Shown: positions 13,497 through 21,805, counted from the first letter of the stretch. The stretch: 53,144 nt of DNA from Promethearchaeota archaeon (GCA_019894975.1 JAGXNO010000024.1:1-53144), one strand, 5' to 3'. Made by a program: numbers and translations. Notes: generated by a model not told the origin, from the letters alone.

Positions 13497-15320
13497 ATGT
13501 ACTCTGAACTCTCAGATGACGATAAAGCTATGTATTTAGATGTGTTGCGAGAAGCTCCAATATTGCCTTTTTCGAATTTTGTGTCTCGTGGAGATCTACC
13601 AGACAAAATTGATGTAGCTAGACCAAGAGCTTATATAGACCGAGAAGTCTTTAGACTCGTACAACAAACTTCTAGAGATAGAAGTAGCAGATTAATTCCT
13701 GTATTGGGAAGTGCTGGTTCAGGTAAAACCCACGCATACCACTCATTTAAAGATAAAGAAAGGGAGAATAAAAAGAAATTAGAACAAACACAAGATGTCC
13801 AAGAAATAGAAGTAGGTGTATTGCCTGTAGATTGGACAATTGTTTATGTTCCTAGCCCTCCTGCAAGTATACGTGTATTACTTCATGTGTACACTTGTAT
13901 GGTTGAAGAACTTGGTGCAGGATTGTTAGATATAGTTTCTGAGAAATTAGTTAAAAAATGGGGTGGAGAAAAAAAAGGAATATTTCAAAAACCTAAAATT
14001 GATGAGGTAATTCAAGTAGGTATTAGAGAATTTCCTGGTGTTTTTGCAGATTGCGTGAAAGCACTAGTTACCTATCAACTAGATAAATCGAAGAAAGCTT
14101 TGGCAGAAAGGTGGCTCCTTGGTGAAGACTTAGAAGATGAGGATTTAAGTGAGTTAGGAATAAATTCTGTTGTTGAAGAGGATGATGTGTGTCTTGCATT
14201 AATTAAGATAATCACTGAAAATTTAGATAAAGTGCTTATTTTATATTTTGACGAACTTGAGTCACCCTACCGTATGTTAGGCGAAGTTGCTGAGAGAAAA
14301 CTTTTAGAAATATTAAAAAGATTATACAATGAAGTGAAAGGGTTAGTTATTACAATTGCGGTATTAAAAGAAATCTGGCCAAGAATTATTGAAATTGCAG
14401 ACGCCCCATTACGTTCAAGAATGGAACCCGAACAAGAATTAAAACCTTTTAGTTTAAATGATCTTAAAATATTTTTCTCTAGGTCAATGGAGAGCTTTTG
14501 GGAAGATAATAATTTGAATCCTCCACTTTATCCCTTATTTCCCCTGAATGAAAAATTAATTGAACTGATATATGAAAAGACTAAAGGCAATCCAAGAAAT
14601 TCTATTAAACTTTGTAGAAGGTTTATTGATAAAGTAGTTATGGAAGAAATGACTGTAGAGGAGCTTTTAGAAGTAGGGGTCGATATTGTTGTAACAGCTA
14701 GACCCCCATCAGAAATGGAAGAAGAAGTAGTTGATTTTTCAAAACCTAGAGAAGTAATTAAGAAGACTATTGAAGATATATTAGCAGAAGAAGAATACTC
14801 AATTGATGTCAATCCTCAATCTGTTGCTGGAGCTACTTTAAAGTGCATTAATATGGTCGGTGATGATAAGGGGAAAAAATACAAAACACAAATGGAATTT
14901 AAGTTTAAAATGGGTAAAAGAGCACAAACTTTAGCTGCATTAATTGAGGCTGAAGGTAGAAAATGGGGTTTAGAAATTCCTTCTATTAAAACCTTCGATC
15001 GAAGCGCCGGGGTAGCAGGATATTACGCTGCTAAACGTTTGAAGGATGCAATTACGGAAAAAGTAATAGACTATGGGATTTTAGTTGTTCCAACAGGCAC
15101 GGGGGGTGCGAAATATGAATTGATTCTGAAGGATAATCCTAACATCCATAAAGTTGAGTTAGACAATGAAATTGGCAAAGAATTGATACAGAATGCCTTA
15201 AAGTATCCAACACAGAAAGGATGGGATATAGCAAAAATAATTTTTAAAGATATTGGTGAATATAAGCCACCTGTACCTGAAACCGAAGAACCTTCAATAG
15301 ATGAAGATTCCTCACAATAG
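13497..15320 (+). CDS. P-loop (AAA+/STAND-like) ATPase of unknown function
   Basis: Walker A GSAGSGKT, Walker B ILYFDELE, PLRSRM, GNPRNSIK; extra C-terminal domain. Confidence 0.8.
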   Translation: MYSELSDDDKAMYLDVLREAPILPFSNFVSRGDLPDKIDVARPRAYIDREVFRLVQQTSRDRSSRLIPVLGSAGSGKTHAYHSFKDKERENKKKLEQTQDVQEIEVGVLPVDWTIVYVPSPPASIRVLLHVYTCMVEELGAGLLDIVSEKLVKKWGGEKKGIFQKPKIDEVIQVGIREFPGVFADCVKALVTYQLDKSKKALAERWLLGEDLEDEDLSELGINSVVEEDDVCLALIKIITENLDKVLILYFDELESPYRMLGEVAERKLLEILKRLYNEVKGLVITIAVLKEIWPRIIEIADAPLRSRMEPEQELKPFSLNDLKIFFSRSMESFWEDNNLNPPLYPLFPLNEKLIELIYEKTKGNPRNSIKLCRRFIDKVVMEEMTVEELLEVGVDIVVTARPPSEMEEEVVDFSKPREVIKKTIEDILAEEEYSIDVNPQSVAGATLKCINMVGDDKGKKYKTQMEFKFKMGKRAQTLAALIEAEGRKWGLEIPSIKTFDRSAGVAGYYAAKRLKDAITEKVIDYGILVVPTGTGGAKYELILKDNPNIHKVELDNEIGKELIQNALKYPTQKGWDIAKIIFKDIGEYKPPVPETEEPSIDEDSSQ

Positions 15321-18117: not shown

Positions 18118-19779
18118 TTGGAAGCTGCTCTAATTTTAAGCCGATTTGATCCTCTCTACGGTCCGAAAATAGTTTTAAAGGCCCCTCAATCGTTAGAGGA
18201 AGAAATTGTAACTAAGATTCCTTCACTAATGGAGCTTCCAACAAAAGGAGTATTCATTCATATATTCGGAAAATTAAAAACGGCAAATCTATTTTTTAAA
18301 TTACTCAGCCCATTCGCCAGGGGAGGATATGAGAGTTTTCTATTGTCATTGGTTACAGATTCAAGCACAAATATTACACTAATGCTTGCGAATGAGCTTT
18401 TAGCCGGATGTGCACAATTCATTATAAAACTACATGAAGCATATAAAGCCTTCGACCACGAACCTAAAGATTTTAAAGCTGATGCCAACAAATTACATGA
18501 AATCAAAACCTTCTTTTTTTCCTATTTTGAATCAATTAGGCCAGTAATTAAGACGTTAGTGATGGCTGAGCAGAGATATCAAGCATTATTTAAAGCGGCT
18601 AAAGACGCTATTTTTATAATGAATAGAGACTCCAAAGTAATTGTAGATGTTAATTTAGAAGGAGAAAAATTAGTAGAAAAAACAAAAGAAGAAATAGTTG
18701 GGATGGGGGCACTAAATCTTGATGTATTTGACAATGGATTAGTGGATCCGAATATGGTAAAGCAGTTAATAAATCAACCACCTCCTATTATTTCTATAAT
18801 AAAACAATCGACTAATAAACAAATGTATATAGAGGTCAATGTCAATGAAATTAAACTGGGAGATGAATATTTCATCCAGTATATGTTTCATGATCTTACT
18901 GATATACACGTGATTGAGGAAAAACTTAAGGAACAAGTTAAAAAAACTGAAATTTTAAACAAAATCATCAGTGTTGCAAATCAGGCTAGTAATCTAGCAG
19001 ATTTATTACTTAAAATAAGAGATAGCTTTATTGACTTATTTGAACTTAAGGGATGCAGCATTTATTTGGTAGATAAATCCCATAATTACGCAATGATAAA
19101 AGTTCATAAAGGCTTTCCATCTTATTTTATTTTAGAAAATAATGAACTAGATATTAATGCAGAACCTTATGATGTTGTTTTTACTAAGGGAGTCGCTCTT
19201 ATTAATAATAATTTCCCCGAGGTTATAGAAAGATTTTTCAGGGGAATGGAAGCTCATTCCACAGCAATTATTCCTTTATTTTCAAAATTCGAAATTTTAG
19301 GATCGTTAAATATGATATTTAAAGACACAAAAGTCTTAAAGCCAGAAGAGATGGATTTGATAATTACAGTCGGTTTAGAATTAGGAACTGCTATTGAAAG
19401 AATGCAAAATAAAGAAGAATTAAAACAAAGTGAAATACAAAACAACGTTCTCTTTGAACATATACCTTTCTCGATTTTCAAAATCTCTGAAAAGGGAATA
19501 TTTTTAGACATTAAATTGGATAAAAAAATTGAAAAAATTATAGAACAAATAATTAACCCTAAAGAGATTATCGGAAATCATATAAGTACATTACTACCAC
19601 TTGAAACTGTAGAAGAAGCCCAAGATAAGATTAAGCAAGCTCTTAAAAATAATGAATCTCAAGAAATGAAATTTATTTTGTCAATAGGTGAGAACAAAAT
19701 TCTTTTTCACTCAAATTTTATTCCTCTTGGGGAAAAAGAAGTACTTGTATTTTTGCAAAATATAACTAGATCCTGGTAG
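18118..19779 (+). CDS. Longin/uDENN-like domain fused to PAS-GAF-PAS sensor domains; no kinase or HTH output
   Basis: LILSRFDPLYGPKIV start and PFARGG loop; AEQRYQALFKAAKDAIF...VDVN PAS ending HDLT; GAF (IIPLFSKFEILGSLN...LELGTAIER); second PAS ending QNITR. Confidence 0.8.
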   Translation: MEAALILSRFDPLYGPKIVLKAPQSLEEEIVTKIPSLMELPTKGVFIHIFGKLKTANLFFKLLSPFARGGYESFLLSLVTDSSTNITLMLANELLAGCAQFIIKLHEAYKAFDHEPKDFKADANKLHEIKTFFFSYFESIRPVIKTLVMAEQRYQALFKAAKDAIFIMNRDSKVIVDVNLEGEKLVEKTKEEIVGMGALNLDVFDNGLVDPNMVKQLINQPPPIISIIKQSTNKQMYIEVNVNEIKLGDEYFIQYMFHDLTDIHVIEEKLKEQVKKTEILNKIISVANQASNLADLLLKIRDSFIDLFELKGCSIYLVDKSHNYAMIKVHKGFPSYFILENNELDINAEPYDVVFTKGVALINNNFPEVIERFFRGMEAHSTAIIPLFSKFEILGSLNMIFKDTKVLKPEEMDLIITVGLELGTAIERMQNKEELKQSEIQNNVLFEHIPFSIFKISEKGIFLDIKLDKKIEKIIEQIINPKEIIGNHISTLLPLETVEEAQDKIKQALKNNESQEMKFILSIGENKILFHSNFIPLGEKEVLVFLQNITRSW

Positions 19780-19812
19780 ATTTATCGTAAAAAGAAAACA
19801 GGAATGTAAATT

Positions 19813-20862
19813 CTAAGTCGTAAGACTTTTTAACATACTATTTATTTTCTCACTTTTGTTTTGAAAATCAATAGCAAGAGAATCATCTCCCAATTCAAGA
19901 CAAAGATTGCTAATTTTTTCAAAGATACCTACCGCAGACTCGAACTCTCCATTTTCTAAAGCTTTCTGTACATCATCTAATAGGTTTTCTCTTTCAAGTA
20001 AAGGTTTCAATAGTGGTGATACCTTAGTATCCATATCTAGCAAGTCTGCTATTATTCGGATCATTTTAGGGCGATTTTCAGTCTCTATCGCTACGAACCC
20101 ATATGTCTTATTGCCCATTAGTCTTTCTATCTCCCCAGTCTTCATCGCATTAGGTAAATCTTGTTTATTAGCAATTATCGCAAATCGAGCATAAGGTACT
20201 GCCTTATTAACTAACTCCAGGAAGAATCGACTTTTTTCGAGGTTTTCTAAAGTTGAGTCGGTCATCAAGAGAACAGCATCACTTCCCCTTATGAATTTTT
20301 CCCATAGAAAATTAAATTCATCTTGCCCGGCAAAATCCCATAAGAAAAATGAGAGTTTTCCTATTTTAATGGTTGCTACCTCCCCGGTTATTGTAGGTAT
20401 ATGTTGCATTGGAATTTCCTCCGATTTTATTAACCGGGTTGTTGTAGTTTTCCCCACACCAGAAAATCCAACAATTGAAATTTTAGGTTTTAGATTTCTA
20501 TGAACACTATCTACAATTGGATCCAACACTTCACCTATTATCTCAAAATTATCCTCATTAAGGCTATCACCGTAAAAATTTAAGAATTCTTTCTGGAACT
20601 TTTTCAATTGGGGTTCAATATCCTTAAAATCGTCACCTAAACCGGACACAAAAATAAAAACCAAACTTGAATCTTCACTTACGATATACGATAGTTTATA
20701 CTCAAAAAATTCGTAAATACCCGTGTCGGTTCCGAACTTTGAGAATGCTACCTTTTTAACTTTTTGATAAACGTTAGTAAAAAGAGATAATTCTAAACCT
20801 TTGGCATAGCTCCTCGAATATACCAACTTATCGTTTAAAATTATAAAAACTTGACGTAGCAT
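19813..20862 (-). CDS. Arf-like small GTPase with N-terminal longin-like domain and C-terminal helical domain
   Basis: G1 GFSGVGKT, G2 PTI, G3 WDFAGQ, G4 ANKQD; ~120-aa longin-like N-terminus. Confidence 0.88.
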   Translation of the reverse strand: MLRQVFIILNDKLVYSRSYAKGLELSLFTNVYQKVKKVAFSKFGTDTGIYEFFEYKLSYIVSEDSSLVFIFVSGLGDDFKDIEPQLKKFQKEFLNFYGDSLNEDNFEIIGEVLDPIVDSVHRNLKPKISIVGFSGVGKTTTTRLIKSEEIPMQHIPTITGEVATIKIGKLSFFLWDFAGQDEFNFLWEKFIRGSDAVLLMTDSTLENLEKSRFFLELVNKAVPYARFAIIANKQDLPNAMKTGEIERLMGNKTYGFVAIETENRPKMIRIIADLLDMDTKVSPLLKPLLERENLLDDVQKALENGEFESAVGIFEKISNLCLELGDDSLAIDFQNKSEKINSMLKSLTT

Positions 20863-20902
20863 GGTGTGATTTGTATTTTCCTATTAAATTCGTATAAAAT
20901 TA

Positions 20903-21805
20903 TTAATTTAAATCCTTCTTTAATTCATCTAATATCTTAATCATATCCTCTTTTTCTAAAGTCTCAGAAAAAATTATAATATACTTGAAATTAGGATTAT
21001 GGTTATTAACACTTGTTATTATCTTATTAAATAATTTGGGACCTAAACTAACTACATTACTTTTCAATGTTATTGTCTCTGGAGATTTGCTAAGATTATA
21101 AACTTCTTCATATAAATAATACAAAATATTAGTATCAAAATCCTCTGATATTTCTTGGATTAATATATAATTATCTTGATTTGTTACAAAACAAATTGTT
21201 TTTGATGAATTTTTTAATTTATTTTTGATATTTTCCTTTAAAGTTGATGTATTTTCTGAGAAATTACTAATTGTATTTGAAATTGCATTATAGGTAGTGT
21301 ATATTAAATTTGGATGTAAACTTGTAAAATAAAGAGGTAGCTCTTCTGGAAGATCTAGTTGTTTTATTATTTGCTTTCGTATAAACGAGAGTAATGTACC
21401 TATCTTTTTCTTTATTATAAGGTCTATTTTGTGCAGAAATAGTATAATTTTCGCTCCGAATTCATGTTTTTTATTTATCTCATAAATTTTTTTAATATCA
21501 TCAATAATATCTTGAGAATCTGATATCCATGTGGGATAATCGAATACGTATATTATAGCTCCAGCATCTCCAAATGCTAATATCTGTTTTTGTTCATCTT
21601 GTAAAATGATGGGTAATGACTGACCTGGAGCATCAATCAAACTAACTTTTGAATCCATGAACTGGTGTACCGAATATTTAATTCCAATGGTCGCTTCAAG
21701 AGGAAACAATATTAAGTCGCTCGGATCCTCACCCTCAAAGATTACTTTCTTGATTGTTGTCTTTCCCATCTCAGGAGGGCCAATAATGGTTATTTTATTT
21801 GCCAT
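20903..21805 (-). CDS. Rag/Gtr1-family GTPase with C-terminal roadblock-like domain
   Basis: G1 GPPEMGKT, LEATI, DAPGQ, IYVFD, Rag-diagnostic G4 HKID, G5 TSL. Confidence 0.85.
   Translation of the reverse strand: MANKITIIGPPEMGKTTIKKVIFEGEDPSDLILFPLEATIGIKYSVHQFMDSKVSLIDAPGQSLPIILQDEQKQILAFGDAGAIIYVFDYPTWISDSQDIIDDIKKIYEINKKHEFGAKIILFLHKIDLIIKKKIGTLLSFIRKQIIKQLDLPEELPLYFTSLHPNLIYTTYNAISNTISNFSENTSTLKENIKNKLKNSSKTICFVTNQDNYILIQEISEDFDTNILYYLYEEVYNLSKSPETITLKSNVVSLGPKLFNKIITSVNNHNPNFKYIIIFSETLEKEDMIKILDELKKDLN

Follow-up and report, generated by a model that had tools for sequence, protein, structure and literature searches.

The DNA analysed here, called the window below, is a stretch of 53,144 nucleotides from Promethearchaeota archaeon (GCA_019894975.1 JAGXNO010000024.1:1-53144). 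It is contig C92 of a host genome of Lokiarchaeia type (G000, 3.9 Mb in 175 contigs). We studied a locus of three genes at positions 18118-21805, which encode a sensor protein with a longin domain (P0001), a longin-fused Arf-like GTPase (P0002) and a GTPase of the Rag/Gtr family (P0003). No further sizeable open reading frame (ORF) is found between these positions. The Rag gene lies upstream of the longin-Arf gene on the same strand with a gap of 40 bp, and the sensor gene converges on the longin-Arf gene with a gap of 33 bp, exactly the layout given in an earlier interpretation made from the DNA alone, here called the sequence-only reading. The three proteins (553, 349 and 300 residues) are small and soluble, with no predicted membrane parts. 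The features of the locus are as follows.

18118-19779, plus strand: sensor gene P0001, 553 aa with a TTG start, longin, PAS, GAF and PAS domains.
18118-18567, plus strand: longin domain of P0001 (aa 1-150), FLCN/NPRL2 type according to the AlphaFold2 (AF2) model, Foldseek and VIA.
18160-18165, plus strand: GP motif G15-P16 of P0001 at the start of strand beta2, from the family alignment.
18319-18324, plus strand: R68-G69 of P0001 in the beta4-beta5 loop, candidate arginine finger, from the family alignment.
18568-19767, plus strand: input region of P0001, with PAS at aa 151-270, GAF at 291-428 and PAS at 480-550, from profile matches.
19780-19812: convergent spacer of 33 bp between the sensor and Arf-like genes, with the T-rich run TTTTCTTTTT read on the minus strand.
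19813-20862, minus strand: P0002, 349 aa, longin, Arf-like GTPase and three-helix tail, from Pfam and the AF2 model.
20863-20902: spacer of 40 bp within the Rag/Arf-like pair, without a T run of five or more.
20903-21805, minus strand: P0003, 300 aa, Rag/Gtr-family GTPase with a Rag-type C-terminal domain, from Pfam and PDB sequence matches.

Profile scans of P0001 identify PAS and GAF domains (TIGR00229 with an E-value of 4.8e-10, PAS_9 with 29 bits, GAF_3 and GAF_2 just below their cut-offs) and no output domain besides the longin. By sequence the PAS-GAF-PAS region has no solved relative, and therefore no ligand can be proposed for P0001. Orthologues of 552-562 aa with 60-97% identity are present in Lokiarchaeia-type metagenome-assembled genomes, including Lokiarchaeum GC14_75.

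The first 150 residues of P0001 have no match in Pfam. In an exhaustive HMMER search the relatives of this domain form 178 clusters; they are nearly always N-terminal, and the lengths of their host proteins vary widely. The AF2 model of the domain, built on an alignment of 68 relatives, is a longin with the topology bbabbbaa (pLDDT 93.6, pTM 0.88). The top Foldseek matches are NPRL2 (E 1e-6), yeast Npr2, FLCN, Lst4 and the solved Lokiarchaeal longin 8yqg. According to VIA, the model scores Z 13.4 against FLCN (root-mean-square deviation 2.8, 135 residues aligned) and Z 12.5 against NPRL2, compared with Z 9-10.5 for the generic longins Ykt6, Sec22 and the sigma-adaptins.

A GP motif and an arginine finger have been described as hallmarks of FLCN, NPRL2, SMCR8 and one class of Asgard longins (PMC12290439, Traffic 2025). 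In P0001 the GP motif, G15-P16, is located at the start of beta2 (residues 15-22), in agreement with the position described there, and is kept in at least 90% of the 68 family members. At least 90% of the 68 members likewise share R68-G69, located in the beta4-beta5 loop, and so do 13 of 13 aligned longins of the GP type. A profile search of the sensor longin family against the PDB sequences returned chance helical matches only, with no chain of FLCN, NPRL2 or a longin among them, so that the tie of the modelled domain to the longins of GTPase-activating proteins (GAPs) is one of fold and motif. By its predicted fold, its GP motif and its conserved arginine, the P0001 longin is of the FLCN/NPRL2 GAP type.

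The AF2 model of P0002 was built with 25 relatives and has three parts (pLDDT 84, pTM 0.81). Residues 1-123 form a generic longin (beta-beta-alpha-beta-beta-beta-alpha-alpha), which according to VIA is similar to VAMP7 (Z 13.8), synbindin (13.6) and Sec22 (12.9). It has neither the GP motif nor the Arg-Gly pair and carries a deletion in place of the beta4-beta5 loop; the non-catalytic partners FNIP2 and NPRL3 likewise have neither feature. Residues 125-277 form the G domain, with Arf1 (Z 15.5) and ARL10B (Z 14.7) as the nearest structures and Rabs within one Z unit, and the C-terminus is a three-helix tail. P0002 matches the Pfam Arf family (PF00025) with 69 bits against a cut-off of 22.3. The P-loop is found at aa 132, DFAGQ at 176 and NKQD at 232, and an invariant SPLL motif follows the G domain. 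In a true Arf an amphipathic N-helix is expected directly before the G domain; because the longin occupies this place, P0002 is not a true Arf, and from the model we classify it as Arf-like (ArfL-type), outside the Arf/ArfR group of 10.1101/2024.02.28.582541.

P0003 matches the Pfam family Gtr1_RagA (PF04670) with 78.1 bits against a cut-off of 22, its residues 4-234 covering positions 1-227 of the 232 in the profile. Its PDB sequence matches are Gtr1 and RagA only, with a best E-value of 1.6e-7. The P-loop is GPPEMGKT (9-16), followed by DAPGQ (58-62), HKID (125-128, a G4 motif of the form HKxD instead of NKxD) and TSL (161-163). The alignment to Gtr1 reaches residue 241, into the C-terminal domain, and for residues 181-300 language-model features point to eukaryotic Gtr1/RagA fragments at 0.85, which we use as a lead only. 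The tail of P0003 is therefore described here as a putative roadblock-type domain. Both P0003 and P0002 have an intact P-loop and the catalytic glutamine (in DAPGQ and DFAGQ). By analogy with Ras-like GTPases, the two should be slow at hydrolysing GTP by themselves and could accept an arginine finger in trans, a property that the motifs of P0002 and P0003 alone do not show.

The domain assignments of the sequence-only reading (a Rag, a longin-Arf fusion and a sensor-longin) are thus borne out by Pfam, the PDB matches, the AF2 folds and the motifs. It had also placed the two GTPases in the classes targeted by eukaryotic longin GAPs, Rag and ARF. This holds for P0003, which is of the Rag/Gtr family; as P0002 is Arf-like and not a true Arf, the parallel with C9orf72-SMCR8 and ARF is an analogy only.

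The Rag and Arf-like genes are probably co-transcribed as a two-gene operon, because the 40-bp gap between them has no T run of five or more and a T-rich run follows the Arf-like gene, where it may act as a terminator. The AT-rich spacers were inspected by eye only. In the metatranscriptome run X20, short contigs that are 95-97% alike cover parts of the Arf-like and Rag genes and none covers the sensor; these come from a mixed library at a low share and establish neither transcription nor its absence.

The operon proposed in the sequence-only reading agrees with the conservation of the pair. Neighbouring Rag and longin-Arf genes, in this order and on a common strand, occur in at least seven genera of the family and have differing genes around them (loci L006, L010, L028-L032 and L034-L036), and some genomes carry two copies of the pair. 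The Rag tree agrees with the Arf tree: L010 groups with L032, and the clade of the window is monophyletic. Therefore the pair was inherited and duplicated as a unit. Among the 301 genomes of the phylum, the longin-Arf family is found only in the families f1 (68 of 68 genomes), f2 (5 of 7) and f3 (1 of 1). The synteny across Asgard genomes that had been suggested as a check is therefore conserved within Lokiarchaeia-type genomes, and a spread across the Asgard archaea is not supported.

Could the arrangement be a chance product of the large Loki families of GTPases and longins? Of the roughly 3600 ORFs in the host genome, about 88 are small-GTPase ORFs, and there are 39 PF04670 matches (about 14 of them strong). 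Tran et al. (PMC10933270) report that in MK-D1 the GTPase genes as a rule do not share operons with longin or roadblock genes. An adjacency that is not conserved, together with the lack of a physical or catalytic interaction, had been named at the outset as what would refute the idea, and chance had been called plausible. However, the orthologous pair, and the trio described below, recur across genera and contexts with congruent trees, and this conserved synteny, despite the expanded families, contradicts chance, which we regard as very improbable.

Further GTPase genes were observed around such pairs. In pair lineages that lack the sensor, a third small GTPase of 176-184 aa is present directly beyond the longin-Arf gene (L030:7738-10316, L034:7578-10235 and L035:13621-16186); its strand is that of the pair in L030 and L034, so that Rag, Arf and small GTPase form a run there. 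Some genomes of the window's genus have a second Rag gene, 54-59% identical to P0003, separated from the first by between a few hundred and about 1250 bp. Loci with a second Rag or tandem genes are G195:C32:14002-16004, G207:C28:439464-442498, G219:C7:10472-13505, G225:C123:454-2498 and G243:C188:9568-11781. The second Rag is directly adjacent in G195, a second longin-Arf gene lies between the two Rags in G207 and G219, the second longin-Arf gene of G243 is in tandem, and the extra Rag copy of G225 has an internal stop. A different pair is also conserved in several genera, in which the gene for a Rag-like protein of about 436 aa, extended at its N-terminus, is always adjacent to the gene for a GTPase-containing protein of about 500-560 aa and shares its strand (L039:8209-11062, L040:9267-12089, L041:7903-10761, L044:6786-9631, L035:4974-7863 and L036:4873-7881).

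Orthologues of the sensor are found only in part of family f1, and the trio in part of f1 and in some metagenome contigs. As far as the contigs permit, the three genes are together in the window's genus, in G267 (genus g4) and in Lokiarchaeum GC14_75. In these near relatives the left flank is conserved too, so the linkage there proves little alone. Over all loci, the sensor adjoins the pair in at least five genomic contexts, in two orientations and with unrelated flanks. In L059, a protein of 528 aa with longin and PAS domains (P0126) converges on the Arf/Rag pair; this locus is bordered at one end by a response regulator with a toxin-antitoxin pair and at the opposite end by an RsbR-like gene. 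In L060, where the Rag gene is cut by the contig end, a protein of 647 aa with a longin and four PAS domains (P0128) converges on the pair beside a ferredoxin/nitroreductase gene. At the contig start in L028 (G317), the part of a sensor gene that encodes its last 145 residues is convergent with the pair. Finally, L010 has Rag, Arf and sensor in this order on one strand. The L010 sensor has 385 aa, a type that was not found in the other genomes searched; its nearest metagenome relative led to L059.

In a tree of longin domains, all trio sensors and the form from genus g6 are in one clade with 97% support. Within this clade L059, L060 and L010 group together, matching the grouping of their Arf partners, and the sensor, Arf and Rag trees mutually agree. 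In G049 and G008, two genomes of the same genus that are 99% complete, the CCG/FAD genes directly adjoin the transglutaminase and formyltransferase (FTR) genes, and all three trio genes are missing; neither a sensor nor a P0003-type Rag is found elsewhere in these two genomes. Because the trio recurs with different flanks, the trees agree and the whole block is present or absent, the adjacency of the three genes is beyond chance. The link of the sensor to the two GTPase genes suspected from the sequence is thus found again in other genomes, and it is likely that the three genes work together.

An alternative explanation is that only the Rag/longin-Arf pair is functional as such, and that the sensor is a co-inherited neighbour acting elsewhere. 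Several observations point in this direction or weigh against a common function. The pair has a far wider distribution than the trio and is often alone or accompanied by a third small GTPase; at L029, L030, L034, L035 and L036 no sensor is found in the sequence beside the pair. (At L029, L031 and L032 the contig ends beside the pair gave no sensor longin in six-frame searches, and they are too short to show absence.) Genus g6 (G144, G261) retains a sensor orthologue without the last PAS, in a conserved frame and with no adjoining pair, and no P0003-type Rag is detected in these genomes at E <= 1e-25. The sensors outside the clade (L014, L015, L061, L064, L065, L067) have no GTPase neighbour. 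The sensor gene is convergent in every locus but L010, i.e. outside the operon and so not co-transcribed with the pair, and in the window's genus the flanks are conserved as well. An obligate coupling is not supported, in view of the shortened g6 sensor without the pair and of several pair lineages without the sensor. However, a mere neighbour does not explain why the sensor stands beside the pair among unrelated flanks and in both orientations, why the three trees agree, why G049 and G008 are missing all three genes but keep the flanks, or why the longin family is repeatedly fused to Arf-like GTPases. We consider that the sensor is only a neighbour to be rather improbable.

Some details of these loci deserve mention. 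The transglutaminase-like flank gene is tandemly duplicated at L054:11903-13346 and L056:3212-4589 (G049 and G171), and these are two of the four same-genus genomes without a detected sensor or P0003-type Rag. At the g6 loci (L008:2896-4647 and L009:10049-12067) the sensor has the order longin-PAS-GAF, and an unannotated ORF of 171-214 aa is in the place of the GTPase pair. The start codon of this shortened sensor is apparently not ATG, GTG or TTG, since the first listed start is already downstream of the beginning of the longin.

Outside the sensor clade, the closest paralogues are proteins of 967-1140 aa that combine the GP-type longin, an Arf domain, two PAS domains (in some cases also GAF) and HATPase_c in a single chain. 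In other members of the longin family a G domain is part of the same protein, or a small GTPase gene comes next. The G domain of the fusions shows no particular closeness to P0002 (the best match in G000 is another paralogue), and the argument from the fusions therefore holds at the family level only. The same longin also precedes the PAS and HATPase_c histidine-kinase domains in P0132, P0138 and L011-L013.

Among the loci with fusions of longin, Arf, PAS and kinase domains in other Lokiarchaeia genomes are L011:7290-10193, L012:6698-10033 and L013:6829-10188, which are all on the minus strand and encode proteins of 967-1119 aa, and the L011 gene is head-to-head with a Rag-like gene. The host genome has a second protein with a GP-type longin at L046:5898-9861 (G000:C98:63897-67860). 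It has 395 aa, of which the rest has no Pfam match, and its gene is head-to-head with a run of a HAD hydrolase, a C-N hydrolase and a Rag-like GTPase (318 aa).

The reading that we favour, by a narrow preference, is that the trio is one Lokiarchaeia signalling module in which a sensor-gated longin GAP regulates a two-GTPase unit. The Rag/Gtr GTPase and the longin-Arf-like GTPase, made from one operon, would work as a pair, probably held together by the roadblock-type C-terminal domain of the Rag and the N-terminal longin of P0002. The sensor P0001 would be cytoplasmic, with the PAS-GAF-PAS region taking the input and the longin as the sole possible output. Depending on the state of the sensor, its longin would or would not dock on either or both of the GTPases, by itself or in a pair with the non-catalytic P0002 longin. 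Once docked, Arg68 could speed up GTP hydrolysis, which would make P0001 a sensor-gated GAP. The data show the domain make-up, the conserved motifs, the conserved linkage and the inheritance of the genes together; we infer the binding, the GAP activity, the target GTPase, the heterodimer, the signal and the downstream effect.

Two longins may meet in such a complex. FLCN-FNIP2, NPRL2-NPRL3 and C9orf72-SMCR8 each pair a catalytic with a non-catalytic longin, and the GTPase sits on both (PMC8213707). Since catalytic and non-catalytic longins pair in these complexes, the P0001 longin may pair with that of P0002. The Rag tail may pair with the very same P0002 longin and hold the two GTPases together. 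A complex prediction of whole P0002 with the P0001 longin scored 0.02, against a mark of 0.32, and counts neither for nor against binding.

It is a serious possibility, for which we would give slightly less than even chances, that the P0001 longin serves P0002 or P0003 as an arginine-finger GAP. We take the catalytic arginines of the known proteins to be R164 in FLCN, R78 in NPRL2 and R147 in SMCR8. VIA maps residues 6-144 of NPRL2 onto residues 1-145 of the P0001 model, as aligned ranges and not as residue pairs, and it is possible that R68 is equivalent to R78 of NPRL2. Several points speak against a GAP. The comparison of R68 with FLCN R164 and NPRL2 R78 is made at the level of aligned ranges and not of single residues. 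The proline of the GP motif is replaced in the trio relatives L059 and L060. Pfam Folliculin (PF11704) does not match P0001 and matches 2 of the 68 relatives weakly (best E 0.0028). Dimers of longins and roadblocks are mostly platforms for guanine nucleotide exchange factors (GEFs) or scaffolds, such as TRAPP, Mon1-Ccz1 and Ragulator (PMC10933270).

The last of these points leads to another explanation, in which the genes do cooperate and the longin is a docking platform that depends on the nucleotide state, i.e. a GEF, a scaffold or a link that makes the sensor an effector of the GTPase. In the effector form, the state of the GTPase would alter the PAS/GAF activity or the location of the sensor. 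It gains from the two trio lineages without the proline and from the histidine kinases with the same longin ahead of PAS and HATPase_c, where the longin could be the input of the kinase and not an output. However, the whole family conserves R68-G69 in a loop absent from generic longins, the nearest folds are the GAP longins FLCN and NPRL2 and not TRAPP or Mon1, and P0001 has no enzymatic domain for a GTPase to control. A docking platform is the less likely of the two ways in which the genes could cooperate, with perhaps one chance in a few.

The sensor-gated GAP can be narrowed further to an archaeal counterpart of the GATOR1/FLCN-Rag axis. Here the sensing of a ligand or of redox state by PAS/GAF would gate the arginine-finger longin GAP, which would switch off a Rag-family GTPase held by a roadblock-longin platform in a heterodimer of two GTPases, and the P0001 longin would pair with the P0002 longin in the manner of FLCN/FNIP or NPRL2/NPRL3. 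In this specific form we regard the reading as unlikely, though worth stating. As to the resemblance to a nutrient-sensing layer upstream of TORC1, which the sequence-only reading had proposed, a link to nutrients or TOR is not supported.

The neighbours of the trio in the window are ordinary metabolic genes. On one side are the formyltransferase and a transglutaminase-like gene, and on the other flank a CCG/4Fe-4S protein and a FAD oxidase. At 13497-15320, on the plus strand of the window, a protein of 607 aa has a weak BrxC/BrxD-like ATPase match (E 7e-4, below the cut-off); it belongs to the left flank of the trio and is conserved in nearly all related genomes looked at. A reading of the region as a defence island was dropped, as the PADLOC defence models gave no meaningful match.

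Ras-superfamily GTPases number in the dozens in Asgard genomes, as do longin and roadblock proteins, and the general lack of clustering (PMC10933270) hides which regulator belongs to which target. The trio names likely partners for otherwise orphan Asgard GTPases, and it is a concrete, conserved set of three proteins with which the partner question raised in PMC12290439 can be tested at the bench. If P0001 is an arginine-finger GAP, archaea would have had the regulatory logic known from upstream of TORC1, in which a longin GAP acts on a Rag GTPase, and would have wired it to prokaryotic PAS/GAF input and not to amino-acid sensors. If the closer correspondence to GATOR1/FLCN-Rag is also true, sensor-controlled longin GAPs for Rag-type GTPases predate both eukaryotes and TOR. 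Judged from sequences and gene order, the trio is a real, conserved and lineage-restricted module with a plausible biochemical logic.

The known eukaryotic longin GAPs are GATOR1 (NPRL2-NPRL3-DEPDC5) for RagA/B, FLCN-FNIP for RagC/D and C9orf72-SMCR8 for ARF. Like these, the trio has a longin of the catalytic type, with GP at beta2 and a conserved arginine, and a non-catalytic longin encoded next door, and the neighbouring GTPases, Rag-family and Arf-like, correspond to the client classes of these GAPs. In contrast to them, the P0001 longin is followed by PAS-GAF-PAS instead of a DENN or NPRL2-specific domain at the C-terminus, the second longin is in one chain with a GTPase, Pfam Folliculin has no match and there is no TOR or lysosome context.

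The pair also resembles the Rag/Gtr heterodimers RagA-RagC and Gtr1-Gtr2. P0003 has HKxD and a Rag-type C-terminal region and is always co-encoded with a second GTPase. However, P0002 is no Rag paralogue, an N-terminal longin replaces the C-terminal roadblock, and the heterodimer is here a proposed one. In bacteria, MglA-MglB is likewise a small GTPase with an adjoining gene for a regulator of the roadblock/longin superfamily. MglB differs, as it is a roadblock homodimer that stands alone and has neither an arginine finger nor sensor domains, and the trio has two GTPases.

The authors of PMC12290439 ask whether ArfR or Rag/Gtr GTPases partner the GP-motif Asgard longins. P0001 has the GP motif and the arginine at the same structural places as those longins. 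The examples given there are mostly heimdallarchaeial and without gene context, whereas the candidates here are from Lokiarchaeia, are named by synteny and include a GTPase of the ArfL type.

NPRL2-like Asgard longins fused to two-component-type domains, as well as longin-GTPase fusions, were reported by Liu et al. (10.1101/2020.10.19.343400), who found most eukaryote-like genes outside conserved neighbourhoods and described one FLCN-like operon with a non-Rag GTPase. A literature search found no description of a conserved trio of sensor, Rag and longin-Arf; the parts are published, and the conserved three-gene module that names candidate partners appears to be new in print. P0001, an NPRL2-like longin with PAS/GAF in one chain, belongs to the class of Liu et al., and P0002 is one of the longin-GTPase fusions reported there. 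What sets the present locus apart is that one clade of sensors is linked, by a specific and conserved neighbourhood, with a GTPase of the Rag family and one of the Arf-like kind.

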